From the NCBI GenBank assembly GCA_037379345.1, contig CM074521.1, positions 34,496,704 to 34,560,703 on the forward strand: a DNA stretch of 64,000 nt, read 5' to 3'. Source of the stretch: Perna viridis. Taxonomy: Eukaryota. Shown here piece after piece: positions 7,356 to 57,324 of this stretch. A model generated the notes under the pieces. That model was not told the origin of the DNA, made no database searches, and worked only from the letters and a program-made list of their open reading frames with translations. Numbering within the stretch: position 1 is the first letter of the stretch; every line of letters begins with the position of its first letter. A program made the position numbers and the translations under genes.

Positions 7356-7792
7356 CTAGAATTCTTACAAATAGGCTTCTGGAACAACAGTGTTATGTTG
7401 CTACAAGATTGAAGTAATCACTACAGAAGTGTTATGGTCGTCATCATGAACTCGTGGATCCTTATGGTGTATCCATCTGCACCATCAAACCTGATTTATT
7501 CAACGGTTCATAGTTTTCCTTTCCTCATTTGTCTACCCCGAACTTGACTTTTTATGAGGAAATTGGTGGGTGTTTCTATAAAAACAGAGGACGCTTACTC
7601 TACCGGTGCACCTGGTGCATGCTCCCAGTCTTTAGCTGAGTCCGAGTTGCTTATTTGCTTTTGTTACTTTGTATGTATGATTTTAGTTACTTTATCTTCT
7701 TTGTTGTGTATGTCTGTTTTCCATGTCTGGTCATTGTCTCTGGATTACATTCTTTTGATTACAGCTGTAGCCTTTGTTCCCGTGATATCTCT
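7356..7792 (+). mobile_element. Penelope-like element 3' fragment (last RT codons plus 3' UTR)
   Basis: LTNRLLEQ...YGRHHELVDPYGVSICTIKPDLFNGS* followed by the shared UTR (gacgcttactctaccggtgcacctgg...ggattacattcttttgatt). Confidence 0.85.
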
Positions 7793-8010
7793 TTGCAAAT
7801 ATTAGAAATATTTTTCCCTTTTCTACGCATCTTCTACCCACCCAAGATAGCCTGTCTTATTACATACATTAGTCAATTCTTTCGAGCATGGATTGAAAAA
7901 AAAGAAGCATAATTGGGATGAGGTTTTAGACTTTTACAAATTGGGTAATATGTAACAATGTAAAGACAATGCATGGTTGGTTGATGCTTGAGCTTGAATT
8001 TTGATCTTAT

Positions 8011-8155
8011 NNNNNNNNNNNNNNNNNNNNNNNNNNNNNNNNNNNNNNNNNNNNNNNNNNNNNNNNNNNNNNNNNNNNNNNNNNNNNNNNNNNNNNNNNN
8101 NNNNNNNNNNNNNNNNNNNNNNNNNNNNNNNNNNNNNNNNNNNNNNNNNNNNNNN
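8011..8155. other. Assembly gap (145 N)
   Basis: Run of N bases. Confidence 1.
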
Positions 8156-13648: not shown

Positions 13649-13730
13649 ATGGCGATGAGTGAAGATATGTTTAGGTTTAAACAACTAAACTGTACCAGTA
13701 CTTCTAATGCCCTAATTACAAGAGATCCAG
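13649..13730 (+). CDS. GPCR coding exon 1 (MAMSEDMFRFKQLNCTSTSNALITRDP-G)
   Basis: ATG with A at -3 replaced by G (gaaATGG) and an in-frame TAA upstream at 13589-13591. Strong donor CAG|gtaaga. Phase 1 matches exon 2. Supplies the first ECD cysteine at the expected spacing from the second. Confidence 0.75.
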
Positions 13731-16700
13731 GTAAGAACATAGTTTTAATGATTGATTCGTCTTGTTTTTGATGGTACATCATGTTTAGATAATAACTTAC
13801 CTAATTGGATCAGGAATTGATTGTTTTATAACGACCAAAAGAATTAAGGATGTTTTATTTGTTTTTATAGTTTTCTGGCAGCAGTTTCTTTGACTGTGCC
13901 AATTGAATACTTCAAAGATCCTTTTTACCTCTTTTTTTTAACTAAAATTTCAACATACGGTTTCATTTATTCCGGCTAAACGTCATGTCATGAACAACTG
14001 TATAAATTAGCATTCTAAACATTTCGGTGGACAGTAGTCTATTTACTATGAAATTTTATAATGATTTGTTTTACTTCCACGAATGTCAGATTATTATTTC
14101 CTGTTGATCGAATTAGTGTTAGAAGCAGAGGAAGTGCAATTTATCTTTAAAAAAAAAACATGTAAAAGGTATGCATCATTAATACGCCCTTAAATAAAAG
14201 ATAATTAAATTTTGTATTCATTTAGGTCAAACCTGAAAAACAAGTTAAAGTTCTGTTGAACAATGTCTGTTAGTTGCAATACTTTTTTTAAAATCTTTAA
14301 TATTGACCCTTTAGTTTTAGATCTGATAAATTATACATAATAGGTTATCCACAATATTATTTTTGAATTATAGCGATTATTGATGCTATATTATACAATA
14401 CTAAAGAAAACCATTTCCTGTAAAAATATAAATTATATTTACAAAACCTCCCGCTGATGAGAAGAGTTCCTCAACGAAGTTCATCATTAATTGCATTATC
14501 TGCCTTAAACAAGTCATCAGTTTCAACAATCGGTGATCAAATCATATTGATCCTTTTTCATTTTAAGCCAATTCTACAAACAAGTTGAGTTTATGTTATT
14601 CCCTTTTGTTGCGTTTCTACCATGTTTAATTCGACGTTTATTTTCACAATTGTCTGAGTAAAAAGGAAATGTATGTAAGGTCTTATGAAGTGTTTTAAGG
14701 ATCTTATCATACATGATATGTCTCTGTCTTGTTATATATCTGTGTTAGATAAACACGGAAGTTGACTATCTTTGAGATTGCCTTGCTTTAGGGTAGTTTT
14801 TTTCCATCAACATCAATTTTAGCTCAAACCTAGCTGTTAGTTCGGATTCAAAGTTACGTTTTTGTTGTGTGTTGTTGTTTTGCCAATGTTTTTGATTGAT
14901 GAAATATGGTATACGGGCACTAGCATTTTATTGAATGAGTTGATAATCGAGTTCCAGGTGTTATTATTGTTGTCTTCTGTCATTTCACCTGACGCTAAGC
15001 TTGTTGTTACAATCATATTTTTGATCACAGAAAGATCAGGTTTATCTTCAAGTCGTCTTATAATAGCTTTAATTTAGGTTTTTCTTTGTTACTCTGTTAC
15101 TTTTGTATCTGTTCTTACAAACAACAATCGATTATAGTAGTTAGTAACATGAAATGTAACACAGACTATAGTGTTTCCTCTTGTTATAGATCTGGTTTAT
15201 GTTTCTTTTTTTCAGTATTGGCAAAATAAAATACTGAACAGTTATCAATTGGACAATCAAAATACCTAAAAATCCAAATTCATGGCCAAAATGTGAAAAC
15301 AGGAAACAAACAACGATCTACAAACACAATATGGCGAACCGAATAAAAAGATTACACATAAAAACTGGAGACAATGAATACAAGACGTAACACAAAGTAA
15401 TAACACTAGCAATATGAATTCCTTAATAAACATAAGAGGAGAAACATCAGCTGTTTTGTTGATTTCACGTTGATGTTCGACTTAGATGAAAATACAAAAT
15501 TAAGTACATTGTTCAGGCATTGCATCATCGGCAACCAAACTGTTTTAAAATGGAACATTAAGAGAAATATATACGATACTTTATTCAAGTAGTAAATATT
15601 TCAAATTAACATAAAATATCTTAACTTTAGTGAAATGTTAATATGCAGCTAACTTGTCAGTATGATAAATCAATTCATCGGAAAATAATACCATTTATTC
15701 AGAAAATTTGTATAGTATAATGTTAGATACAAACAATAACATTTGAAACAGAAATAAAAACAAACAAACAAACAAACAAACTAACTAACAAACTATTGAC
15801 TCCACAAGTAGTAATTGATTTAATTAAGGAATAGATGAAAAGGACAATAATTATCGCGAAAATTTAATGATTTTGTTTTTGTTTGTTTTGTTTTGTTTTT
15901 TTTTAAATTTTCTACATAAAAATATGGTCAATTTATATAACTGTCATTTGAATCAGATAGTTCCTAGCGTGTTAAAATCCTTACCGTCACTTTTCATCGA
16001 TTTTAACATATTTTTCTTTAGCTGTACTTTTTTTTTCATCAGATAAACCCTTGCTTTGGAAAACCGATTATGACGTGCTAAATTACAAGTGTAACCTGTC
16101 CATTATAACTATATCAGAACTGGATCAAATCTGTGAAAAGTTTATTCTGAAGTGTTGACAACTATTTTCCTTTTTTATGATAGGGGCGCCGTGTTTAAGA
16201 TATCTAAAAAATGAATTAGCCAGTGATTAGCATTTCTGTTTATTTTCATACCTGATTCTTTAGATCACGTTCTAACGTAAATCGTTATGTCATTCACACA
16301 GAGATAAAATTATATAACGCTTAATTTATTTTCGTTTAAAACTTTATTCAAAGGGTTAATAGAAGCGTTCAATGATCTGTCTTTAATCTGGTAAAAAATA
16401 ACCGAATAATAGCGCAACAGTCTCAAATAAAATGTTTTGAATGCATACTTATTTTTTTCCACACAAACGTTCAATGTAATGAACGTTACCAAAACAAACC
16501 TAACTTAAGTCTAGACTGTCCTTATGTAAGGAGTAACGTTACTTTTTGAATATAAGAGTAATTAAGGGAACCACGATTCTAGCGGAAAGAAAAAAAAAAT
16601 GTTATTCAGGGACAAACACTAGATATTGAAAACAGACTGACACAACAAAGAACATAAAATAACCAATATAATACATTCAGAATGACATAAGTAAATGAGC

Positions 16701-19700
16701 AACTCGGACTCCCGAACTGGGAGCATGGACCAGATGCACCGGTAGGGTAAGCGTCCTCTACTTTTTAAGAATACAGCCGTCGATATGTTCATTCAAGTTA
16801 AGTTGGAGGTAGAAGAAAGAGGAAAGGAAAACTATGACACGTTGAACAATTCAGTTTTCATGGTGCAAATGGATGCACCGTAACGATGCACAAGTTCATG
16901 GTAACGACCATAAAAATTCTGCAATGATGACTTCAATCTTCAATCATAACTGTTCCAAAAGCCTAATTGTACGACGTGAAGCGCGATACGGCAACCTCTG
17001 GCATATCGTATTGCAATATGGAAACTCCGTACGCAGGCGCCGAAGGGATGTTGTCACAGATGAAAAAAAAAGTTCACAATACGGAAAGAAAAGTCATCGC
17101 GTTTGTCGTATAGTTTGGTTAATAGTTTTCATTTATCATCGGAATCTAAGTGTCGGTCAATATATGAGGCTGAACTTACTGTGTATGCTATATTTGTTAT
17201 CTCAAGTTCTTTCGAGTAGATGCGGTGTATCAAATCCCCGAAAATAGGATCGATTAACGATATTACGTCATCTGTATAGCGGAAACTGATATTGAAGGAT
17301 CTTGCTTAAGGATGTTTCTTCTTTTGGGTCAGATGAGCTTTAAAGTCAGCTTTATAAGAGTGACGGAAATGATCAACAAATAAAGGAGCACCATTTGTTC
17401 CCATTGAAATGCATTGGAATGCCGACCATTTATTGAAAAACGCGTCCGCCATACTTGACAAATATGTTGTCGATAAAAAATTCGGTAAAAAAATTGAAAA
17501 CATCATGTTTGGTATATCTGGGAATTATTTTTAACACAGTTAAAAAATCGTCTATCGACTTAAAACAGTATTTTGGTCGAACAATTGCCATTCTATTAGC
17601 TGTTTTTTCAGTTAAGTATAGGCTTCATTATTAATGAATGTTGTATAGCACAAAAATTCACCTTAAGTTACTGTAAACGTACTAATTTTTGCTTTTTGTG
17701 GGGTGGACAAAAAAAACCATCGAAAAATAGTATACGCAAAATTGATTTTCAATACTTTGTGACGCAAATCATTTGTTTTGTTTTTTTTTTTTTTTTTGGA
17801 AACCGCGAAAATTGATACACGCGAATATGCTCACTTGAATCCGCAAAAATTAATACATTTACAATATTAATAACACACGAGCCTAAGCAACTTTTTTATG
17901 TTGTTGAAAGTAAATAACGCGAATTGACATTCCGCACTTATCAAATTTCACGAGTTAATACTCCGAAATAACCGAGATTTTACGAGATATAATTTTTTAT
18001 AGAAAATGATATATAATCAAACAACAACCAACTTTTGCGAAGTTAATTTCCATAGCACTTGTTCATATCACATCGTCCATGGCGTGATATTGCAAATATA
18101 TAGCCGTCCAAGAAGTAGATAAAAAGCGACCAGGCAGAACTGTTGATTTGATGTAAGAGTTATCAAGGGAACCAAGGTTATAAGGTAATCAAAAGAATGC
18201 AATCTAGAGACATAGACCAGACATGGAAAACAGACATTCACAACAAAGAACACAAAGTAACTAAAATTATACATATAAGGCAGTTTTATTTATGTAAACA
18301 ATACTTATTATACTATTGACGGATATTTATAAGTTGTAAGTATATGATTTAAATACGATGCAGAAGCAAACGTTATAATTATGAGTAATAATCTTAATCA
18401 ATGGTATGTATCTATTTACAGTTTACGGACAGATTAATTGTCATATTTGCCTTTTCTGTTTGATTAGATATACAAGGAGTAGCCCAGGAAAGCTAACGCA
18501 GTAACGCAATCAGTTTAGCGAATGTAATTATACCCCACGCTTAGTTTGCATCCATGACGTTCTAATTTCAATATCGAAATCATCTTTTTCGTTTTGTTTT
18601 TGCGAATTCTTGAACATAGAAAGAAATGTCACACTAGTTGTAATATTGAAGGTTGATGCATATGTATTGGTATTTTGTCGTTAGTTTGATCGTTGATCTG
18701 GATTCTTAAGGGCGGGTTTTACAGAGGTGTTCAGGAAATGTGAATATGAAATCTATATCACATTGTCATTTTCATGTGGTGATTAATATATCTATTGCCG
18801 TTATGGGAGACATGAAAAATAACACAAAAAAAAAACAAAACGTGTCTATTATTTTTAGAGTCAATGCAAACTTAGTACGATATAAATGTGTCTTAAACGT
18901 GTCTTATGAAGTTTGTAAAACATTGGAGTCGTCTTTTTCTTTATTATACATCATTGTTGAGTAATGATGAGCTAAAATGAAACCGAATTGGTCAAGTGCA
19001 TTTTTCAGATTCGCACAGCAATTGGTATCTTAAAGTTTTACTAAAAAGCTAATTTGAATTTGTATCGTTGAGGAAAATATCTTAAATGTCCATTCCCAGC
19101 AGAATAAGTGGTTTGATAAAGATAATAAAACTGTAATTGTTATTATCAATAATATGAATTTTCCTCGGTTTAAAACCTGTCTGAACTACATATACACTAT
19201 TTGTAAGGAATTCGACCATTAATTGTGAGAAAGACGTAAATGCTGAGTTCAAATACAATTCGCATTTGATTTTACTATGCCATGGTATTATATTTAATCG
19301 TAATTAACCTGCTATTCTGTATTCAATACTAGAGAATGATCTGTGTGCCATTTCTTATAAAACAATCAACAGATGTTTAATTAGGACTGTGATACGGGAG
19401 ATATGTAAACTCATGCTGTTATTCTCGATTTATTCTCCGTTTCTTGTGCTTGTTTTATAGATGAAGGTGTTTATTGAATATTAATTTGAATTCCATCTTG
19501 GCGTTTATCATGCTTTGAATCTCCACATCATTCATCTCGTTACAGTTTTGAAAATTTTGAAATACTTGAAAATACACGAGAAATCTTTATTTGTGATTTT
19601 TTACAAAAAATATCAATTCCTTTTTTATCTAAATCTAAACGTTTTTAATATAGTGATAAAGAAATTCGTCTACATTATGTATTGTATTTCCAAGTGTTTC

Positions 19701-34700: not shown

Positions 34701-37700
34701 TTTCTTGATGTGCAATTCGCCTACCTTGTTGAATTTATAATATGGTATACATGTACTTGAGTTTATTGTAGTAAGTGTTTTTTGTTTGTTTGTATTATTT
34801 TGTATTATCATATGTTGATTACTACTTGTGAAATAAGCTATTTATCTGTCCCTGATATAATATCATTATGATATACTCGTGGATCGTAATGATGTATCCA
34901 TCTGCACCATGAAAACTGATTTATTCAACGGGTCATAGTTTTCCTCGTTTGTCTACCCCGGGCTCGACTTTTTATGAGCAACACGGCGGTTGTTTCTAGA
35001 ACAGCAGAGGACGCTTACCCTACCGGTGCACCTGGTCCATGCTCCCAGTGTTTAGTCGAGTCTGAGTTGCTCATTTGCTTTTGTTACTTTGTATGTATGA
35101 TTTTAGTTACTTTATGTTCTTTGTTGTGTATGTTTGTTTTCCATGTCTGGTCTTTGTCCCTGGATTACATTCTTTTGATTATCGCTATAACCTTGGTTCC
35201 CTTGATTACTCATACATATATATACAAATGTTAGTAATAAACGAACATGAAGTCATATTCCCAGTTCATTTTATGTGTTATGTCTTGTTATTTGTCCTAT
35301 CTAATTGTAATTATTTATACGTGTCTTATAGGATATTATTATTTTTAAATCAATATCTTCAAATCTTTTTGGGATGTTTTGTTGTTTAATTCTGTAATGA
35401 ATACACATCCGTCAAAGAACCTTATCATATTTTTCTCTCTTTAATACAATGTATTAGTTAGTTCGATTTTTAGTGCACAAAACACCTGCATCGTGATACA
35501 AATATTTTCATATGTTTAATGTCACTTGTATCAGAATTACACAGATCCCTTACCCTACTGGTGCATCCAGTACTTTTCTTTTATTTATTGAGTCCGGATT
35601 GCTCAATTGCCGTTGTTTTTTACAAGTTATGTTTTGTTATTTTATGTATTTTATAGTGTATATATATTTTTCCTGTCAAGTCGTTGTCCTTGGAGTGTGT
35701 CTTTATTACCGTTCGAGTTCTGGTTCTCCTGGTTTTCACTTGAACTCTTTTTTTCATTGTGCATACCCGTCCTCAGGCAATATTGCATATTTCTTTCTTT
35801 AAAGAATATGTACTTCAAATAATGATACCGTAGTCCTGTTATCGGATTAGTACAGAATTCGTTCTGATAATTAAAATTTTGTCTGTTTGAGGTATTTACC
35901 TTAAATCAGTAGATTAGCAATTCATTTTTAGAAAATTAATCGGATATTTAATATCCAATCTGAAAGGCGTCAAAATCAGAGATTAAATCACATTGGCGAG
36001 AAACAGTAATAAAATCGGTCGTATTCGATACCAAACAATGGCAAGTGATGTTTAAAATATTAACTGACCTTATTCAAAATTAGTGTTTCTCTACTAGGCT
36101 AACAATTCCTAAATACAGTAACACATATACACGGCTCTCATATTTCAAATTGTACATGCTTGTAAGTTTGATGAATATTCAACACGTTATTTTTAAAACA
36201 AACTATCAATGGATGATGTGACTTGCTTGTTACATTGATATTCAACAGATAGAAGGTGCTTCAACTAATATCATAGTCTTACAGGACTTGACTCGCGTGG
36301 TTATTTACCGACAACATACATTTAACGACGTACTGACAGTAAGAACACCGGTTAAAATGAAATGTGCAAATTCCCTTAAATAAGGATAACACTTCCTGTG
36401 TGGACACACACAATTGCATTTTATAGTATTAATTTACATGAGTTCAGTCCGGAGATGTTGGTCATTAATTAGTCTTCTCCTTCTTGTTTAAGTATAGTTC
36501 ACCATATATGTTCCTTTTAGATTCGACGCCTTACAAGATTGATTACCAACCGACCCTTATACCTTCCAGCCGAAATTCCTTTGACACAAGTCAAACGAGC
36601 TAAGTCATAGAATTCACTACGGTCCAAATCTTGTATTTAAATTTAAATGTCCATTTCTGTAGGGGTAAGATTTATTTTATCATCTACCGGGAGTGGATGT
36701 GATAAGTAATTATATTTTATTTTGAGTTTTAGTCCATACCTAATTAAATAAAATGCACTTGAAAATATGTCCTTATATTCGGCAAATATCGATACCAAGA
36801 CACCTGAATGACCAACATTAATATATTTAGGCGAAATCATTCATTTCGAACTTGGTATTATGCTGCAAGTGCAGCAGACAACTTGGAAATAGTAGACAAG
36901 CATCGGTAATCAACATAATTAGATAAAGGCAACGATAAAGCATCCAAAACATGCTTCATTCATAAATTGTTTGTAGAACATTTTGAATTTGATCTTGCCC
37001 TTGATATCATAAAGCAATAAATCGTGCATTAGTAAACCTCACAGGGCCAAAACTGTACTAGAATTTCCTCGGAAATAAGATGTACACAAAAATGAGCTCA
37101 GTAGAAAATTACATGTCTGGGTTACATTATTTTGATTTCCGCTGCTCTTGTATCAACATAGTAAATAAAACAAGTACCATCTTTAAAAAAGATAACCGAC
37201 GCAGTAGAATTTTGTTCTTTTACTAATACTTTTCTATATTTCATTCAAGAAAATAACACATGGCAAACAATGTCGATACATGTTTTTGGAACGCCACTAA
37301 GTTATCAGTATTTGGCCGATCGGGAAACAGAATTGCGATCAGGTGCCTTGGGTTTCCATAGAAGAGCGTCTTTAAGGTCAAAGGGTAAAAAGTGAAACTA
37401 TACCGACTGCGTCGGAAAAACAAAAAGTACTGCATCTGTAGTTAAACGCTCGTTCTTACACTTAAATATTGATTAAAGGTCTTAAGTTAACAAAGATAAC
37501 GGTCTCTGTTGTGAAGGTAATCATACTTTTTATTACATTTTAGAATGTTTCATATCGAGTAAGAATCCATTACCATGAACCTCAGTTTCGTCCCCATGTG
37601 AATTAACCATACACACAAAAGAAGATTTAACATGTTTGCATCATATCATATATTCAATAAGGCAAAGGTTATTTGATAAACAATGTCGATTTGAGGACAA

Positions 37701-40700
37701 TTGTACCTCAAAACATTATTAATAATTAAATAATTAAGGAGTAATCAAGGGAACCAAGGTTATAGCGGTAATCAAAAGAATGTAATCCAGGGACAAAGAC
37801 CAGACAAGGAAAACAGACACACACAACAAAGAACATAAAGTAACTCAAAATCATACATACAAAGTAACAAAAGTAAATAATTAGAACTAGTATTAGTATC
37901 ATACTAACAGAGATCCTAAGCATTCTCCACGCTCATACAGAAAAACATATTTTAAACACCAACCTTAACTTCTTATAAACGGTACTGTGTATCGTTAGAT
38001 ATCTTATTTCGAAATACAAACATCGATATTAGAAAATAAAAACACGTAAAGTACGAAGTCTAAACTAAAATGAAAGCAAAAAGAACAAGGGGAAATAAGA
38101 ATAGAAAATGATGTCCACTTTACATGTATCATATTGGTATGTTTAAAGTCTACATTTTGGGGTAAATTGCTTTTATAAATATTTTTTCTTTTACCAATTC
38201 TAAGTAAATTGAAAGATATAAAGATAAACTGTAAAAAAAAAATACTAGACGACCACATTACATATTCCACTAGGTACCGCGCAATTTCATGTGGCAATGT
38301 GCAAATATATAGCTAAAATGTAAGTGATAATTCAATGTATATTACGGGCAAGTTACAACAGATTCTTCTTGAATGGAGTTTGAATTACCTACTCGCCATA
38401 CACTATTTTTGTTTGCACCGAAATTCACGACGGGGTATATGCCAAATGAAAAAAGACGATTATTTCGAGATAGAGACTAAAGGAGATGTGAAGAGAAGGA
38501 GATCAACATGTTGCATGTTAAAGAGTTATATTAGAACACAATGACCCCGAGTAGATATATATCAGAATTAATAATATTTAAGTGATGTTCAAACACCCAG
38601 AGTTTAATTTGTTGTTTAAAGAGTTACTTCTGCTGATTTGGTCTTTTTAATTTTTTTTTAATTTTATTTATTTATTTATTTATTTAGGCTTCTCCTATTT
38701 CCGTGTTTCCATTTTGTCTTAATAAGTAAGTACTAAAAGCCATGATATGCCTTGTACGTTTGATGCCAGAGCAGAATTTCGTTTTCCGGCCCTAAAACAA
38801 GATGTATATTCGACGTTTCAAACAAAGAATGCTTTCACAACTTAAATATCATTTTATTCAAGATCTATCGGTCTTTGTTTGTGTTAATGATATTGTTTGA
38901 CTAATTAAACAAAGGAAGAGCGAGTACTATTTATGTAGTTACTCCGAAAAACTAATGGTTGAAATTGCTTGAATTTATGTCGTGTGACGTATTTAGGAAT
39001 TGGTTCTTTAAACTTATAACACAAATGCATTCGTATGTTATAGGAAATTTCGCATTTGTGTTAATAATATTGTTCGACTATTTAAATGATAGCGACATTT
39101 TCTGTGTGTGGGACTGGGGGTGGGGGGTAAACTATATTATATACAATTGTACTCTCATTTAGTTAATGTATGTATTATTTTTGCTAATAATTCTCATCTT
39201 ACATATGGGCTTTGTTTTAACTTTCTTTTCAAACCATACGTTTCATCAAAACGGATAACTCACTTTTATCCATTTTTTTTTCATTTTGGCAGGTATATTT
39301 ATCTTTTAAAGTGTAGACGACGTCTTCTATGCTTTCCTTTAACATTTATTTACACTCCGTGGGGTTTAAAACTTAATTTTTCATTAAAGAAAATCGATGC
39401 TGTGTTTCAGTTCCTGGCGTTTGATTACTACATTCGTCAATAAAAGTTCATTATATAATTTGTTTAATGAGAACACTAATTCAACAGTAAAAAAAATCAA
39501 TTTTTTCACTTAAGGAAATAGTCATTTTTTGAAAGCGTTTCTTTTTTCAACTGCATGAAAATACTCAAAAAGGTTGCACGTGCCATTTTTAAGAACCGGT
39601 TTCTTCCAAATGTCATAGTTTTCCCTTTCTTTTTGTCAAACCTTGACTTGACTTTTTATAAGCAACTCGGCTTGTATTTCTAAAAACAAAATCACAAGAC
39701 GCTTACCCTACTGGTGCAGCTGGTCCATTCTTGGTTCCCTTGATAACTCTTTAAGAAGGGATACCAGAGAACACAAAACCATACAATAACATACAGGTTT
39801 GTGAAAATGAAAAAGTATAGTAAAGTATATAACCTATAAAGAGTATCAGCTTTACTGATCACACTGAGAAACATTTCTCGTCAACGTGATTGCTGTGAAA
39901 TGTTCTGATAAAACCATCTATTCCAACGCATTTGATCTCTCCCACGAGCTGTCTGAAATTATATGACAATGTTGATATACTCTCTCCAATCTTTATCAAG
40001 CATTGAAACAATGCTTTCGTAGACTCTAGAGAAAAATTGTTACCATTGTCGAGATAAGGTCTGGTGCTATTGTGAACGAGTTTATTTTTAGAGTCCTAGT
40101 ATCGCTTTTTAAATGGTAGGAACAATGGATTAATCTAGTTTTGGGAACCCTCATATAGTTGAAAGAATAATCAAGGGAACCAAGGTTATAGTGGTAATCA
40201 AAAGAATGTAATCCAGGGACAAAGACCAGACATGGAAAACAGACATACACAACAAAGAACATAAAGTAACTAAAATATTACATAAAAGTAACACTAAAAA
40301 CTGGGAGCATGGACCAGATGCACCGGTAGGGTAAGCGTCCTCTGTTTTTCTAGAAACACCCGCCGAGTTGCTCATAAAAATGGAAAACCAAATAAATTAT
40401 ACCAACCACACACTCCACTCACCCTCCAAACTAAATGATAATATCTACAACTTACTAAATTGTATTAACGTTTTCTTTATGACGTTGAACGATACCGATA
40501 TTCATCTATATATGGACGACATATTTAATAAGTTGAAGCAAATAAAAACGGAAAACGAAAAAAAAAAAAACAGAAACCGAATGACAAGTGTGCTAGGAAA
40601 ATGTATTATGGACTATACGGCAGGTGCACTGGTACCTTATGCCACCCGTTTATGCCGCGTCGTTTATTTACCGTCTTCCAATAGCTAAAGTGACTGGATA

Positions 40701-53700: not shown

Positions 53701-55649
53701 AAATTAGAAAAGTCATTATATTATTCTACTATGTCAAAAAGAAAATTTCACTTAAGGATGATTTTTCGATATGAAAAATCTACTGATAAATCTCTCCTTT
53801 ACTGGATCTGTTTAGTAATTTTTCAATAGAAAATTATATTATTGATAGAGTTATCTGTCCTGGAAATGTTCATTTTAGTTCATTTAGATGAAATTATACC
53901 TCAGTTTACCCAAAACAATATTGAAAATCTTTCCTATTTCCTTGATTCTGATGATGCAAATAGTCAAATACCATTTTCAAAATGGTTTTCTTTTTTTCAT
54001 ACCTTGATTTGCCATATGTCTGCTTCTTAAAGAGACTTAGCCTCAAAATCTTCGCTAACATTTACAAATCGCATTCTCATGCAGAATTAAAGTCTTATTT
54101 ACTTATTCTTTATTTTCTTATTTTACAGGTTAAGAGGGTGATAAGACAGAAATGGACTAGGTTCACCATAAGACGCCATTTGAAGGGAGGGAGGGGCCGA
54201 CCGCGTGGTTCACGGGCCTCTGACTTCATGCTCTCACAAACAGAGGTACACCCCTTGACTGCTTTTCGCAAGAGTGTTTGCCATGCACTACATGGCTGTC
54301 ACGATGAATGTGAACATAAACACGCACCTGACTGTGATAAAAAAGAGAAAAAGATTTTCTGTCCGTGTGCATGGGACGAGGATTAAAATCACCTGAAATA
54401 ATGTATTAATGACTAACGTTGTGCAATAAATATGTTCATAACACTAGTGTTGTATTCATTGGATTGGTCATTGTGTCTTCAGGTGAATTAGCACTAATTA
54501 CATTTAGATATTTCCTGTCTAACAACTAATGCACTTAAAAGCTGTTCACTCACGATAATGCTTTTTTCCATCTTCTTTAATCTTACATATTTCGTCAGTG
54601 TAGTTGTTGTGTGAATTGTCAATTTTCAAGCACAATTTGAGCATAATATTTAATGGAAATACAAGCTACATTTGTAAAAGAGATGCATTTAAGTGACGTC
54701 GCCGTGAATTAATTGTATACATTTGAAAATCATTAATTATTATTATCCTAAATCATTTGTAAGCATAACTTTTTCGAATTTTTTATGATTTTGCAAATGA
54801 CATGAATAAGTTACTATATAGCATACCTTCTATCGTGTCAGAGTTCTCGAAGGTAACTAGGTTCCAAGCATAATTTTTTTTATTTTGTCTTTCGTTTTTT
54901 ATTTTTTTGCTTTTTTATCATTATACATTTTTGGTACGTATCGTGATGTAAGACACAAGACGGTTTAATGATTTTAATTTCATATTATTTAATGTTTTGT
55001 CTTCTTTTTTTTTTTGGTAATCATATGTTTATAACATAAGAAATACCAATTTGGCGACATGTATACGTTTCTAATTTTATTATGATATATGTTTTTTTTT
55101 ATTATTTATTTAAGCTTCTTAATTATTTCCCTTTATTAGATTTTGATTTCATTTTTCCTCCTTTTGTAGCAGACTCAACTTCCCACATCATCCTTACTCT
55201 TAGCTGGATCTTCGTTGTCATCTGATAATACTTCCGGTGTTTTGAACAACAGTCGTTTCAACAAGATAACAACACCGATTCCTGAAGAGTTTATTGATGA
55301 AAACTGTACGGAAATTGAACCTATTTTCGAAAACAAAACCAATGATAAACTTGTTGTGAACAACCATTTGGAAGAGAAGTCTTTAGTAGAAAGCCATGTG
55401 GATGCTACACCAGTTATTATTCCAAACCACGTGCCGATTGGCCATTCTGTTTCCGATCATGTTGAAACGATCAACAACCTAAACAATAACACACAGACCA
55501 AAATAAACGGGGGACCCTGTAATTCTTCCATGGAATATAAACATCTTAACGCAGGTATTGAAATAAAACATTTGTCTGGGTTTGGTGATAACACATTTAT
55601 TTTACCATCCGCTGAATCTTTCGAAAGAATCAATGAAAGTGTTATTTGA
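13649..55649 (+). CDS. Class B1 (secretin-family) GPCR, CRF/DH44-, PDF- or calcitonin-receptor-like; 12 coding exons, 564 aa (alternative 451-aa form ends at 54386)
   Basis: join(13649..13730,41666..41773,44757..44863,45464..45585,46850..46976,48685..48841,49306..49436,50411..50496,52448..52583,53326..53367,54129..54245,55170..55649) gives one open frame with all introns GT-AG and phases 1,1,0,2,0,1,0,2,0,0,0. Class B motifs: C..FD.LICW, PCP, CSSDGNW, DY..C, LHCHRITIH, NMYWMFVEGLYLH, IGWGVP, CW in ECL2, FLINIIRILVTKLR, ATIILFPLLG, YCFMNGEV. Subfamily not resolvable by eye. Confidence 0.93.
15250..15372. repeat. Unclassified dispersed repeat, ~120 bp
   Basis: Close match at 24280-24400 (aaaatac.taaaaatccaaa...atgtgaaaaca.gaaac...gcgaaccgaataaaaagattacac); weaker copies near 465-570 and 41880-41950. 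Confidence 0.7.
16556..17510 (-). mobile_element. Penelope-like retroelement, 5'-truncated and degenerate (RT C-terminal half plus 3' UTR)
   Basis: Minus-strand translation with stops and frameshifts: ISMGTNGAPL..D.F..SY.ADF, SFNISFRYTDDVISL, IYSKELEI, ASYID..L, TKLYDKRDDFSFRIVNF, NIPSAPAYGV, FYGRYHELVHRYGASICTMKTELFNVS*, followed by the family 3' UTR. Ends approximate. Confidence 0.85.
17669..17866. mobile_element. MITE, 198 bp, with 24-bp terminal inverted repeats
   Basis: tactgtaaacgtactaatttttgc versus the reverse complement of gcaaaaattaatacatttacaata (21 of 24 match); TA at both ends; internal cgc(g/a)aaaatt sub-repeats. Confidence 0.75.
18156..18275 (-). mobile_element. Penelope-like 3' terminal fragment
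   Basis: gagttatcaagggaaccaaggttata...aatcaaaagaatgcaatc...ccagacatggaaaacagac matches the family 3' end. Confidence 0.8.
19783..20010. repeat. Array of short palindromic ttcacgtgaa-like motifs, probably DNA transposon subterminal repeats
   Basis: About a dozen variants: ttcacatg, ttcatgtgaa, tcacatgaaa, ttcacgtga, tcacgtgaaa, ttcacgcgaa, ttcaggtgaa. Confidence 0.65.
21811..21894 (+). mobile_element. Penelope-like 3' terminal fragment
   Basis: ttttccatgtctggtctttgtccctggataacattcttttgatt...ttattactc. Confidence 0.75.
23390..23640. repeat. GC palindrome plus short tandem gatatagggtatgc repeats, likely a non-autonomous DNA element remnant
   Basis: Perfect 14-bp palindrome cggcccgcgggccg at 23429-23442; gatatagggtatgc repeated between 23530 and 23625. 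Confidence 0.55.
25195..25290 (-). mobile_element. Partial copy (tail plus part of B box) of the same tRNA-derived element, also beside (TA)n
   Basis: gaactgtcaaatttgcgatgcaa..tttggtcgttctctccgcgggactcg matches 57325-57375. Confidence 0.7.
26174..26380 (+). mobile_element. Degenerate Penelope-like 3' UTR copy
   Basis: ttttatgagcaactcggtgggttgttctaaaaaatcagag...gcttccctattggttcacctgg and downstream similarity to the family UTR. Confidence 0.65.
27230..28240. repeat. Degenerate T/G-rich minisatellite, ~33-35-bp unit
   Basis: Recurrent gagttc(g/a)tgtctcctttg(c/t)gtct; exact 35-bp period at 27611, 27646 and 27681. Confidence 0.85.
29244..29763 (-). mobile_element. ~520-bp SINE-like non-autonomous retroelement with (TCAA)n tail and 15-bp TSD
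   Basis: Flanked by cctaaggcatgttaa (29229-29243) and ccttaggcatgttaa (29764-29778), one mismatch. 3' end reads ...atattgctgccttggcgttaaacc...tcaatcaatca. Second copy at 62473. Confidence 0.85.
29861..30059 (-). mobile_element. Penelope-like 3' UTR copy
   Basis: gagtaatcaagggaaccaagg...ctgggagcatggaccagatgcaccggaagggtaagcgtcc. Confidence 0.85.
33965..34660 (+). mobile_element. CR1/L2-group LINE, degenerate 3' part of ORF2
   Basis: Frameshifted translation GSKSKLKKVKDFKISCN, SVKYLGLCIEQ, FLYRYK, SGLNKALRNNLQVGQNK, QLRLNHI, CPSYM, YNTSSS, VKDWNNLPNKLK fits post-RT C-terminal motifs (KYLG, YNTR, WNxLP) of this group. Confidence 0.75.
34870..35211 (+). mobile_element. Penelope-like element 3' UTR copy, best preserved
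   Basis: Close match to 7450-7790; ends with the family terminus cttggttcccttgattactc. Confidence 0.85.
35540..35740 (+). mobile_element. Old, degenerate Penelope-like 3' UTR copy
   Basis: cttaccctactggtgcatcc...gagtccggattgctca...ttctggttctcctggtt aligns loosely with 35010-35210. Confidence 0.6.
37739..37878 (-). mobile_element. Penelope-like 3' terminal fragment
   Basis: Near-identical reverse complement of about 35072-35211. Confidence 0.85.
39612..39750 (+). mobile_element. Penelope-like 3' UTR copy with internal deletion
   Basis: gtcatagttttcc...gacgcttaccctactggtgcagctggtccat joined directly to cttggttcccttgataactc. Confidence 0.75.
40165..40380 (-). mobile_element. Penelope-like 3' UTR copy
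   Basis: taatcaagggaaccaagg...gcaccggtagggtaagcgtcctctgtttttctagaaacacccgccgagttgctcataaaa. Confidence 0.85.
41666..41773 (+). CDS. GPCR exon 2 (ECD: QVYCEPEFDQLICWKAAPANSIMSEPCPIPGVQLP)
   Basis: Acceptor ttttgctag, donor C|gtaaga; hormone-receptor-domain motif C-x4-D-x3-CW...PCP. Confidence 0.95.
44757..44863 (+). CDS. GPCR exon 3 (ECD: QALAFKNCSSDGNWTKTDYNVCFQHIPEEEFIPHP)
   Basis: Acceptor ttttttattacag, donor CCG|gtaagc; C-x2-DG-x-W and DY-x2-C motifs. Confidence 0.95.
45464..45585 (+). CDS. GPCR exon 4 (TM1: TEMVDEYEKHIATVMSDIYFVFSIISLLFLLISIFIFIYF-K)
   Basis: Acceptor ttttgttttctcag, donor AA|gtaagt; hydrophobic TM1 with the class B pattern S.ISL..L..S..IF..F. Confidence 0.95.
46195..46375 (+). 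mobile_element. Highly degenerate Penelope-like 3' UTR copy in intron 4
   Basis: agaggacg...cttacc...acctggtccatgctt...gttcgggtagctcattt resembles the family core. Confidence 0.5.
46850..46976 (+). CDS. GPCR exon 5 (ICL1-TM2: SLHCHRITIHVHMFISFVIKFVILIIMVEPGVTKRTNTYRDY)
   Basis: Acceptor ttatttcag, donor TAT|gtaagt; LHC.R..IH motif; part of ORF 46797..47057. Confidence 0.96.
47731..47773. repeat. (TTA)n microsatellite
   Basis: About 14 tandem tta units. Confidence 0.95.
48685..48841 (+). CDS. GPCR exon 6 (TM3-TM4: EWLCKTLIALREYGNTSNMYWMFVEGLYLHNQIAAAVFSTDAPFKLFCFIGW-G)
   Basis: Acceptor tttcctttag, donor G|gtaaga; hallmark WMFVEGLYLH and IGWG. Confidence 0.97.
49306..49436 (+). CDS. GPCR exon 7 (TM4-ECL2-TM5: VPGIIVLVWSIIMQLTYDNSCWNKYSQSDWIYLVLVPFLFVIF)
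   Basis: Acceptor ctattttag, donor TTT|gtaagt; ECL2 CW motif; part of ORF 49212..49484. Confidence 0.95.
49466..49670. mobile_element. Partial MITE with TA-CAGT terminus (pogo/Tc1-mariner-like non-autonomous element)
   Basis: Begins tacagtgcaacctgtctaaac with repeated acctgtctaa units; no intact right terminus. Related inverted motifs lie at about 5160-5335. Confidence 0.5.
50411..50496 (+). CDS. GPCR exon 8 (TM5-ICL3: INLLFLINIIRILVTKLRSNNTDESSRI-K)
   Basis: Acceptor tcttttgcag, donor AA|gtaagt; N..F..NI.RIL.TKLR motif. Confidence 0.96.
52448..52583 (+). CDS. GPCR exon 9 (TM6-ECL3-TM7: KTIRATIILFPLLGLTNIIFLYNPEDRGSLQVTYHITNAILQSTG)
   Basis: Acceptor atttttcag, donor GGG|gtgagc; PLLG motif. 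Confidence 0.96.
53326..53367 (+). CDS. GPCR exon 10 (42-nt TM7 exon: GILLAVLYCFMNGE)
   Basis: Acceptor ctattttag, donor GAG|gtaggt; matches the 14-codon TM7 exon typical of class B GPCR genes. Confidence 0.97.
54129..54386 (+). CDS. GPCR exon 11 (helix 8 VKRVIRQKWTRF...); internal donor at 54245/54246 or read-through to stop at 54384-54386
   Basis: Acceptor ttattttacag; V...I..KW.R helix-8 pattern. Donor GAG|gtacac is phase 0. The frame stays open to TAA (ORF 53982..54386). Confidence 0.88.
   Translation, partial: VKRVIRQKWTRFTIRRHLKGGRGRPRGSRASDFMLSQTEVHPLTAFRKSVCHALHGCHDECEHKHAPDCDKKEKKIFCPCAWDED
54425..54430 (+). terminator. Candidate proximal polyadenylation signal for the short isoform
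   Basis: AATAAA 38 nt after the read-through stop, with GT-rich sequence (gtgttgtatt) about 20 nt downstream. Confidence 0.5.
55170..55649 (+). CDS. GPCR terminal exon 12 (Ser/Asn-rich tail ending ...ERINESVI)
   Basis: Long pyrimidine tract plus tandem acceptor tag/cag (55169, 55172), phase 0. In frame with ORF 55215..55649: 160 codons with coding-like composition. Confidence 0.82.
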   Translation, partial: QTQLPTSSLLLAGSSLSSDNTSGVLNNSRFNKITTPIPEEFIDENCTEIEPIFENKTNDKLVVNNHLEEKSLVESHVDATPVIIPNHVPIGHSVSDHVETINNLNNNTQTKINGGPCNSSMEYKHLNAGIEIKHLSGFGDNTFILPSAESFERINESVI

Positions 55650-56170
55650 AGATATTTTGGATTATAACTAGTTGGATTAATATATATCGCTGTGCTGTAC
55701 TGTATCAATGGAGGAGTTGCCTTTAGATTGTGCGATAGTCACAAGGAAAGGACTTCACGATGATACGATCCAATGGATACACAATCACTTCAATATCATT
55801 TCTGGAAAAAAAAATAAAACACCAACGGTTTTTATGTTGATTCTCAAAGATAGAAGCTACATTACATTAGCACTGCATCTTTGTCGCTAGCAAAAACAAA
55901 ACAATATCAAAACAATACTTCATAACACGATATAAAAAACTTGAGTTATATACATAAGGGTGCATATTAAATGTTATATTGGAACAATGTTTATGCTGAT
56001 GTAAAGTAATTGCTCAACTATCGTTCATATCTCATTACAAGTGATGACGACCACGAAGTGTAGGTTCAATGTTATGCATCATCATATTTATTTAAAACAT
56101 GTATACATTTTATTATGATGTACAGTATGACCATAATTTATTGTATTTATTATGAGGAAACAAATAATGA

Positions 56171-56176
56171 AATAAA
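56171..56176 (+). terminator. Candidate distal polyadenylation signal for the long isoform
   Basis: AATAAA at the end of an AU-rich stretch with ATTTA motifs, followed by T-rich sequence. Another AATAAA lies at 55813-55818. Confidence 0.45.
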
Positions 56177-57324
56177 ACTACACTATTTAAAAAGTTTTTA
56201 TTTACGGAAATACAAGATGCTATTCCGCAACCTTTTTTTTTTGCAAAAAGCCGAAAGCGATCATCGTAAGTTATGACGTCACAATGTTATCGTGACGTCA
56301 ATATCTACGATCGACTTTACCCTTACGACTTCTTGTGACATTGGATCCAATATAGTATCTTACGCACTCATATTGGTTATACAAGGACGACTATTTGAGA
56401 ATATCTCATGAGAAGCAATTTTATGCAAAAATTAAAGTTTTTCTTGATATTATTGCACTGAGCTAATGTAATGGTCAGTATCGGTCAAGGTCTACTTATT
56501 ACCATTCTTGTATGAATGATAAGGAAAATATTTAAGGAAAAAAACACAACGTTGAACTGTTGCAAATAATAAGCTAGCTATTGTTGCACGGATTTCGTAA
56601 CTTACACTATTGTATTTGTGACAATGTATTTCTGATATGACTTGATACAAAGCTTTTTGGTAAAAAAAAGTGGCAAATACATGAACACATTTCGTGCATC
56701 TGTTAAAAAATATGAAGAAACTAGACCTATTACAATCGAAATTAATCAGGGAATCTCAATTTAATCATTGTTTTACCATGGTCTGTCCATATATGTCGTT
56801 ATTTTACATTCGCCATCGCTCGGGTAAAACAATGTGGCATACACGGCCAGCCCGTGGTAAAAAAAATAATAACATGAATATTCCGTGATTGATTTCTTAA
56901 TTACATTGAGGGGTACATGAATTTGAGATATTATTAGATAAAATCATAGAACATAGCCAGTTTATTACCATTACTAAGTTTGTGGTATGTCTTCGTATAC
57001 TAAATATGTAACGTATGACTTATTTCGCTCATAATTTGTGTTTTAAATTCATCAATCACAGATTAAATAAAATAACACATAGCTTATCTAATGTTATTGT
57101 ATGTAAATAATATTGATTGTTCATTGTTAATCAAAGTCAATTGAGGAAAAACGTCCTCTATTCCAATTCAAACATACAAACCCGTTTTTCTCTTCGTAGC
57201 TAAATACAAAAATAAAATAATTGGAAAAGCATAACCGATTTGTTCCCAATGATTATTTACTTTGAGAAAGTAACGTTATTGAACTACAATCCGTACCCTT
57301 TTGTTTTTGGGGGATGGTCTGTCT

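Follow-up and report, generated by a model that had tools for sequence, protein, structure and literature searches.

The closest described systems are receptors whose tails are exchanged. The human 5-HT4 and 5-HT7 receptors occur as tail variants that are identical up to one residue after the 7TM core and of which only some carry a PDZ ligand, and for the 5-HT4(a) and (e) variants PDZ partners are described as steering localisation (available part of PMC2644495). The A and B isoforms of the Aplysia tachykinin-related peptide receptor, a mollusc neuropeptide GPCR, differ only in the C-tail and are reported to differ in desensitisation (available part of PMC11365428). The alpha, beta and gamma forms of mGluR1 set a long scaffold-binding tail against short tails and differ in trafficking, and for mGluR1-gamma the RNA is present whereas the protein was undetectable (available part of PMC6287019), which is a caution for the short form described below.

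The mussel locus described here, in a window of 64,000 nucleotides (the whole stretch of DNA that was analysed), resembles these systems in each of the shared features: a single point of divergence after the transmembrane core, isoforms that differ only in the C-tail, and a long tail with a candidate PDZ ligand beside a short one. We propose that exon 11 of this gene contains two competing 5' splice sites that are joined to the same last exon, resulting in two tails that likely differ in scaffold binding and membrane anchoring, and we give this reading a probability of about 0.7.

Receptor class and gene structure

The gene, from the mytilid mussel Perna viridis, encodes a class B1 (secretin-family) GPCR, as judged by its sequence. 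In the Pfam search, exon 2 matched the hormone-receptor domain PF02793 above the cut-off (E 3.4e-7), exon 3 matched it below the cut-off (E 0.0034), and exon matches to the 7tm_2 core PF00002 reached E 4e-13 and 1e-7. The Mytilus orthologue matched the human secretin, CRF and calcitonin receptors with E values of 1e-57 to 1e-53, and the structure model of a Mytilus isoform contains seven transmembrane helices and helix 8, the helix at residues 357-378 being the helix 8 region of the exon 11 core. An 11-exon chain starting at 13649 (Table 1) is open and gives 405 shared residues and isoforms of 564 and 451 aa, in agreement with the lengths given in the preliminary description and counting a predicted exon 1. 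A phase-1 donor/Cys scan gave three distinct matches, of which this candidate exon is one; it has a strong donor (CAG/gtaaga) and a weak tblastn match to the N-terminus of a relative, and is followed by a 27.9-kb intron. The junctions 52583>53326 and 53367>54129 were found in RNA contigs.

Table 1. Features of the receptor gene (positions in the window)
Feature	Position	Strand	Basis or remark
Candidate exon 1 (27 codons + 1 nt)	13649..13730	+	ATG at 13649; predicted, absent from RNA contigs
Exon 2, HRM domain	41666..41773	+	Pfam PF02793; open chain
Exons 3-10, rest of ectodomain and 7TM core	44757..53367	+	AG/GT ends, open frame, Pfam 7tm_2
Exons 3-6	44757-44863, 45464-45585, 46850-46976, 48685-48841	+	
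Exons 7-10	49306-49436, 50411-50496, 52448-52583, 53326-53367	+	
Exon 11 core, helix 8 and Arg/Ser-rich segment, common to both isoforms	54129..54245	+	
Proximal 5' splice site within coding sequence, Glu/Val, GAG/GTACAC	54243..54251	+	Used in 8/8 runs
Read-through short tail, 46 codons, 6 Cys, stop TAA	54246..54386	+	Spliced contigs in 3 runs
Putative decayed remnant of ancestral last 10 codons and stop	54384..54416	+	Comparison with Mytilus ending
AATAAA	54425..54430	+	Candidate poly(A) signal only
Distal 5' splice site CAG/GTGAAT, 96 nt past short-tail stop	54480..54488	+	RNA joint
Last exon, 159-codon long tail ending ESVI; 3' UTR in short form	55170..55649	+	
Shared 3' UTR	55650..56178	+	Contig ends 56113-56178, near AATAAA 56171; approximate 3' end

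The receptor is probably of the orphan "PDF-like/unc4" type, an assignment made by elimination and with a tree that held no named unc4 sequence. In this quick tree (57 rows, tails removed, no named anchor), the receptor group was set apart from six more distant mollusc and annelid receptors, which we take to be DH44-like. The species-named homologues, 120 among the matches listed, came from molluscs, a brachiopod, a nemertean, an annelid, crustaceans, chelicerates and echinoderms, and none of these 120 came from insects or vertebrates. In its class and in this spread, the receptor is like the PDF-like (unc4)/PDFR-related group, which the available parts of the sources describe as invertebrate-only, bilaterian-wide class B1 receptors separate from the CRH/DH44, PDF, calcitonin and PTH groups (PMC8557429, PMC3961327, PMC5818035). 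Accessions of the mussel receptor's group from Pecten, an urchin, a brittle-star and Limulus do not occur (4/4 checked) in the list of CRHR, CTR, DH31R and PDFR sequences in PMC12638048. The available part of PMC7200681 reports that no bivalve PDFR-related homologue was found, and four peptide probes had no match in its supplement, in which other identifiers are used. Relatives bear the database name "CRF receptor 2-like", which would suggest a CRH/DH44 (ELH) receptor. No paralogue of exon 11 with its tail was found in the mussel's own genome.

Splicing at exon 11

Seven contig runs and one raw-read run (X21) were analysed; no run is recorded as RNA, and the contigs were taken as RNA on the strength of their exon joints, which have GT..AG ends. 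The joint 54245>55170, which gives the long tail (564 aa), was found in 8/8 runs, and the joint 54482>55170, which gives the short tail (451 aa), was found in 3/8 runs (X4, X13 and X11, of studies P2, P4 and P3), both with GT..AG ends. Two GT donors used with one acceptor constitute alternative 5' splice site isoforms, and the two mutually exclusive tails proposed in the preliminary description are thus both represented by junctions in RNA. When sites were scored against the donor consensus, the proximal donor GAG/gtacac matched at 5 of 9 positions, tied for the lowest score among the gene's 12 scored donors and as weak as had been suggested, and the distal donor CAG/gtgaat matched at 7 of 9. 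Use of the distal donor retains 237 more bases than use of the proximal one. The distal donor, the risk of nonsense-mediated decay (NMD) and the age of the arrangement had been missed earlier.

The distal joint was absent from four of the seven contig runs and from the raw-read run, whose evidence is thin (~3-4x depth, 19% read, the main joint covered by four reads, zero depth at 54263-54866). Where present, the short-form joint had ~15-22% of the junction contig depth, contig depth being a poor measure. In run X1, contigs also cover the upstream intron (depth 7.0 vs 12.2), and therefore unspliced RNA is present. Both 55170 and 55173 had been named as acceptors; 55170 was the sole acceptor seen, and 55173 was not among the joints listed, one list being complete and the other leaving 12 joints out. 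The expected coverage of 54246-54450 was found in the spliced contigs of three runs, but the poly(A) end expected there was not. For the micro-inserts of Mytilus (9, 6, 5 and 4 residues), neither an intact counterpart in this intron nor a corresponding joint among those listed was found; a 9-codon look-alike at 54510 is without splice ends.

Conservation and age of the two tails

The read-through tail has the properties given for it in the preliminary description, namely 46 codons with a stop at 54384-54386, a GC content above that of the flanking non-coding DNA (0.44 vs 0.26-0.31) and a following AATAAA. It is conserved as coding sequence, being identical at 30/46 positions to the tail of M. 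trossulus XP_063421040.1 (isoform X2) and likewise at 30/46 to another mytilid tail; the long tail is identical at 50-63 of about 150 aligned positions, and the core at 296/371. At 54384-54416, a remnant differs by 10 substitutions from the Mytilus ending and has the old stop in register; among 11,795 intron windows, 3 come equally near to that ending. By this comparison of sequences, the mussel lineage has lost the last 10 codons of the short tail, including a Cys pair, and uses an earlier stop.

The same fork is found beyond the mytilids. The donor GAG/GTACAY is present in 3/3 clam loci (L002-L004), where an open stretch of 91-98 codons containing 8-12 Cys comes after GAG/gtaca(t/c)cc, and a RefSeq model of Mya carries the read-through tail. 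Haliotis asinina, rufescens and rubra each have an X1 model of the read-through type, rich in Cys, and an X2 model with 12 residues ending in T-P-L/V; the two fork at the same Glu, as does one Haliotis paralogue. In the clam loci no distal donor was found near the stop, with one at ~247 nt in L002 and L003 and none within 500 nt in L004. The first 11 residues after the fork in octopus, nemertean and 4/5 echinoderm rows scored 19-28.5 against gastropod references, with a maximum of 19.0 among 8,752 null 11-mers; echinoderms, nemertean, octopus and snails were compared as proteins, and DNA was seen for mussels and clams. This match suggests that the read-through tail is probably the older C-terminus. 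Given that the same choice appears in clams and abalones at the corresponding position, the either-or choice of tails likely dates back hundreds of millions of years. The tail was reached only via cluster members and HMMER, a word-index search with exon 11 and the short tail having given 0/41 candidates; a metagenome scan returned the three clam loci and no mytilid DNA.

No Pfam family was found for the short tail, and the long tail gave a sub-threshold chance match only. In the Mytilus isoform model, a low-confidence helix (399-411) is at the start of the short tail, and most of the modelled tail has a pLDDT below 50. ESM Atlas returned scores of 0.76 only, which were uninformative. PDB alignments of the abalone read-through isoform mostly end at the fork or ahead of it, and the three that were listed contained no solved homologue of the tail.

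The C-terminus of the long tail, ESVI, fits the class I PDZ ligand pattern, [S/T]-x-hydrophobic, as defined in the available part of PMC2644495, and is a candidate ligand by pattern match. Relatives end in S-F-I, S-T-I, T-V-L, T-P-L and T-A-L. Among mollusc rows, the pattern was found in 17/32 non-read-through tails and 0/14 read-through tails (Fisher P 5e-4, overstated as the rows are related), which bears out the tie between the pattern and the spliced tail that had been proposed. Row P0050, which ends without the pattern, was left out of these counts, its anchor being unmatched. Scallop and oyster long tails are without the pattern, and a nemertean tail of the read-through type carries it.

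Alternative readings and known systems

The preliminary description had explained the two tails by a switch between splicing and polyadenylation, with the short RNA ending at AATAAA 54425. This signal lies 39 nt past the short-tail stop, and contigs drop rare ends. Furthermore, the clam loci are without a close distal donor, and therefore polyadenylation may be what ends the short form in other species. In this mussel, however, contigs pass through 54425-54480 in all seven contig runs, three splicing at 54482 and four entering the intron, with neither loose ends nor an accumulation of ends listed there. The AATAAA alone is weak evidence, because five occur in the ~2.1 kb of 54246-56400, in DNA that is roughly 70% AT. 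The short RNA arises instead by the distal joint, and we regard the polyadenylation switch as very unlikely. Splicing noise at a weak donor, with the open frame as an accident of the intron, might be suggested by the weakness of the site and by the unspliced RNA in X1, but the protein sequence of the tail is conserved across mussels, clams and snails and the discrete second joint recurs in three studies; this reading is largely refuted and highly improbable.

A different possibility is that the distal donor serves mainly as a poison splice in this mussel, in which NMD tunes the receptor dose while the ancestral tail decays. The NMD rule from vertebrates applies to stops located more than 50-55 nt before the final junction. 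The short-form stop is 96 nt upstream of that junction and the short form has roughly double the length of 3' UTR (1082 vs 506 nt), and for these reasons the short-form RNA may be subject to NMD. The 10 codons lost in this lineage and the minor, patchy occurrence of the short form would also fit. On the other hand, the 46 codons that remain share 65% identity with Mytilus, above the long tail, the ancestral stop was likewise 66 nt upstream of the donor position, and the joint recurs in three studies at the contig depth given above. No paper that tests junction-dependent NMD in molluscs was found in the literature searched. We consider the poison splice unlikely, though less so than the other two.

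In the preferred reading, that of two competing donors which yield two receptors, two steps are shown: the common RNA, with the long tail ending in S-V-I, comes from the weak proximal donor at 54245, and use of the distal donor at 54482 lets the frame continue into the Cys-rich tail and its stop, with the long-tail exon becoming 3' UTR. The two receptors would be identical through helix 8 and differ in the tail. The proximal donor lies within conserved coding sequence (Glu/Val) in mussels and clams, with abalone models forking at the same residue, and it may let each lineage attach its own last exon, often one ending in a class I PDZ ligand. The long form could be held or recycled by PDZ scaffolds, and the short form, without this tag, may bind the membrane by a short basic amphipathic helix and the Cys cluster, likely via palmitoylation. 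Having the Arg/Ser phosphorylation segment in common, the two would be similar in G-protein coupling and differ in location and desensitisation.

More tentatively, with the odds somewhat against it, the donor could have arisen in early lophotrochozoans within the ancestral C-terminal coding sequence of an orphan bilaterian neuropeptide receptor and have persisted as a plug-in point for >500 million years. With read-through, the old tail that echinoderms still share would be retained, in molluscs with a lipidated or metal-binding Cys cluster, splicing would add unrelated last exons with PDZ endings, and both products would be functional and tissue-regulated. If true, this would be among the oldest known conserved GPCR isoform switches. 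Alternative splice events are generally considered to turn over fast.

In the DNA of mussels and clams the donor falls on one and the same codon boundary, where the abalone models fork too. Six bases are constrained twice, as splice site and as protein code, and the case shows how a PDZ-bearing tail can be gained without loss of the old one. Deorphanising this receptor requires a choice of isoform. Gene models choose one tail by species, so that the shared design is hidden and comparisons of C-termini can be misled. No papers on this isoform pair or on this depth of conservation were found in a search made mostly without subscription journals. Automatic isoform models of M. trossulus (XP_063421040.1) and Haliotis (XP_067649770.1/XP_067649771.1) already contain the same read-through and spliced tails. 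These RefSeq models are named only "CRF receptor 2-like", and the mussel short tail differs in being 10 residues shorter and in that RNA was shown to use the distal donor.

The described systems belong to other classes. The Aplysia receptor is class A and cell-tested, and the available part of its paper describes neither conservation of the splice point across classes nor a contrast between PDZ and Cys tails. mGluR1 is class C, and 5-HT4 and 5-HT7 are class A vertebrate receptors, whereas the mussel receptor is class B1, with its donor within conserved coding sequence and apparently common across mollusc classes. Exchange of GPCR tails is of a known kind.

Two donors and one acceptor give two reading outcomes

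The two-tail feature of this receptor gene is real, and its mechanism is corrected here from that of the preliminary description. RNA evidence came from 8 of 24 listed runs, comprising seven contig sets (five studies) and one raw-read run. The expected joint 54245>55170 was found in all eight, and a second GT..AG joint, 54482>55170, was present in contig runs X4, X13 and X11, from three different studies, whose contigs span 54216-54480 and then enter the last exon. Contig depths for the second versus the main joint were 12.3 versus 69.1, 19.1 versus 95.7 and 15.9 versus 56.1, which are rough, as contigs give no levels. Low-depth contigs (4-12) from runs X1, X2, X5 and X17 extend into the intron and are partly unspliced RNA, because in X1 the upstream intron too is covered, at depth 7. 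The splice-versus-polyadenylation switch proposed earlier, with a short RNA ending after AATAAA, is not supported: neither an RNA 3' end nor loose letters occurred near this signal among the ends listed for the contig runs, and the short-form RNA splices 54482>55170. The short form therefore arises from an alternative donor and leaves the last exon untranslated, and two donors share one acceptor with two reading outcomes.

The bases and coordinates previously described for exon 11, both tails and AATAAA were confirmed on the sequence, as were the 46 further codons read through from exon 11 and the GC-richer composition of the short-tail segment (0.44 versus 0.26-0.31 around it). From 41666 onwards, ten exons with AG/GT ends join into an open frame of 377 codons, in a region that is single-copy in its own genome. 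With the candidate first exon added, the proposed receptor lengths of 564 and 451 aa were reproduced.

Features of the receptor gene and its surroundings
Feature	Position	Strand	Remarks
N run	8011-8155		upstream of gene
Dispersed repeat	7548-7802, 16699-16809, 34920-35231, 40151-40435	both	in or near gene
Candidate first exon	13649-13730	+	brings part common to both forms to 405 residues
First intron, if candidate exon is right	13731-41665	+	27.9 kb
High-copy repeat 5' of exon 11	53659-54111		intronic; inverted parts; contig depth thousands-fold; opposite-strand joints
Exon 11 to proximal donor	54129-54245	+	weak donor GAG|gtacac, 5/9 consensus
Short-form stop	54384-54386	+	TAA
AATAAA	54425	+	downstream of short tail
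Distal donor	54482	+	CAG|gtgaat, 7/9 consensus
Insert-like codons	54510-54536		nine codons
AG...GT-flanked stretch	54842-54852		11 nt; donor AAG|gtaact at 54852, 7/9; no RNA joint found there
Last exon	55170-55649	+	159 codons, ESVI end
C>G difference	55340		8/8 runs; synonymous third position, long tail
Contig ends	56113-56178		common 3' UTR

Coding potential and age of the fork

The frame of the short tail is conserved, since it is present in M. trossulus isoform X2 (XP_063421040.1) with 30/46 residues identical, and in another mytilid tail with the same count. Against Mytilus, the core is identical at 296/371 positions and the long tail at 50-63 of ~150 aligned positions, mostly near either end of that tail. 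Judged from these alignments, the short tail is coding. Past the mussel's short-tail stop, a run of ten decayed codons is followed by another stop, in exact register with the relatives' ending, a fit equalled by 3 of 11,795 intron windows, which indicates that this lineage shortened the tail and lost a Cys pair. The Glu at which the tails part is a splicing hotspot, because Mytilus also inserts 9-, 6- and 5-residue variants there. The insert-like codons resemble the 9-residue variant, lack in-frame splice ends, and outscored the whole background of 12,310 positions with one of three related queries but not with the others; they are possibly a decayed cassette exon, or chance. A third class of mussel and clam models (P0038, P0039, P0047, P0008, P0069, P0073) ends 2-6 residues past the fork.

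Three clam loci, two of them near-identical, contain GAG|gtaca(t/c)cc followed by 91-98 open, Cys-rich codons with a VHPL start. A RefSeq model represents this read-through form in Mya, and in other clams the annotated tails are unrelated and begin at the same Glu. At 2156-2170 of clam locus L002, and at the equivalent site of L003, a pyrimidine-rich AG, 13 nt and GAG|gtaatt lie ~235-250 nt past the stop of the read-through frame and could be a micro-exon or a distal donor. Beyond the window and the clam loci only proteins were compared, and 'spliced' and 'read-through' are therefore inferred labels there. Both forms occur, as isoforms X1 and X2, in three Haliotis species, and a paralogue from a fourth also shows both. 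Pomacea, Babylonia, Nucella and Batillaria are of the read-through type, and Littorina, Gigantopelta and a chiton of the other.

Post-fork 11-mers were scored at a fixed position against gastropod references, with a null of 8,752 11-mers (maximum 19.0). Octopus and a second cephalopod-like row (both 22.5) and a nemertean (28.5) exceeded this maximum, and four echinoderm rows reached 19-22.5 and a fifth 7. Bivalves scored 6-12 (P 0.001-0.007), and scores for three spider rows were similar (9-12). The most parsimonious interpretation takes the read-through sequence as the older C-terminus and places the donor before the bivalve/gastropod split, more than 500 million years ago. The echinoderm boundary could be an ordinary intron.

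PDZ endings and receptor family

C-terminal endings were scored in 55 rows, 46 of them molluscan. Class I PDZ endings occurred in 17/32 non-read-through versus 0/14 read-through mollusc rows, a contrast whose nominal P of 5e-4 is too small because the rows are related. They are spread over otherwise dissimilar tails of mussels, clams, a freshwater mussel, abalones, a periwinkle and a chiton; the pattern was absent from the scallop and oyster rows and present in the nemertean read-through-type tail. It also ends 24/52 arthropod relatives, suggesting that the family may have had PDZ binding for a long time.

The exons match Pfam HRM and 7tm_2, and the closest proteins are Mytilus models named 'CRF receptor 2-like' (exon 6 identity 94-96%), which makes the host a mytilid mussel. 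Species-named matches among the 120 listed of 154 for a Mytilus protein were molluscs, a brachiopod, a nemertean, an annelid, crustaceans, chelicerates and echinoderms; neither insects nor vertebrates are among them. In a quick tree built from 57 rows without their tails, 50 fell together (support 92, base unresolved), separate from a PDFR-named row and from six receptors that are more distant. All four group members checked were absent from the published CRH, calcitonin, DH31 and PDF receptor list (PMC12638048 supplement). Of the lophotrochozoan secretin-type groups that PMC8557429 names, elimination leaves the orphan 'PDF-like (unc4)' group as the likely one for this receptor; PMC7200681 reports no bivalve PDFR-related receptor.

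Possible roles of the two tails and known systems

Helix 8 and an Arg/Ser segment would be common to both proteins, and the long form would present the predicted PDZ ligand. At the short-tail start, the Mytilus model has a predicted helix (399-411, pLDDT about 50-55; hydrophobic moment 0.36), which, with the basic residues and Cys present, would be suited to palmitoylation and attachment to the membrane; alternatively, the Cys may bind metal. This mechanism is called into question chiefly by possible decay of the short-form RNA, whose stop lies 96 nt upstream of the last junction and whose 3' UTR measures ~1080 nt. A literature search on this point found no account of the junction rule of decay in molluscs, and mGluR1-gamma (PMC6287019) shows that a spliced GPCR RNA does not necessarily yield protein.

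RefSeq already contains single isoforms as automatic models. No description of the isoform pair, the distal-donor route or the cross-class conservation was found in the literature searched, whose coverage excludes most subscription journals, and the pair is apparently new to description and very old. Swaps of C-tails in which a PDZ ligand is gained or lost are already a known kind of GPCR variation, also in the mollusc receptor of PMC11365428, and the 5-HT4 variants (PMC2644495) have PDZ ligands like that of the long form, which steer their localisation.
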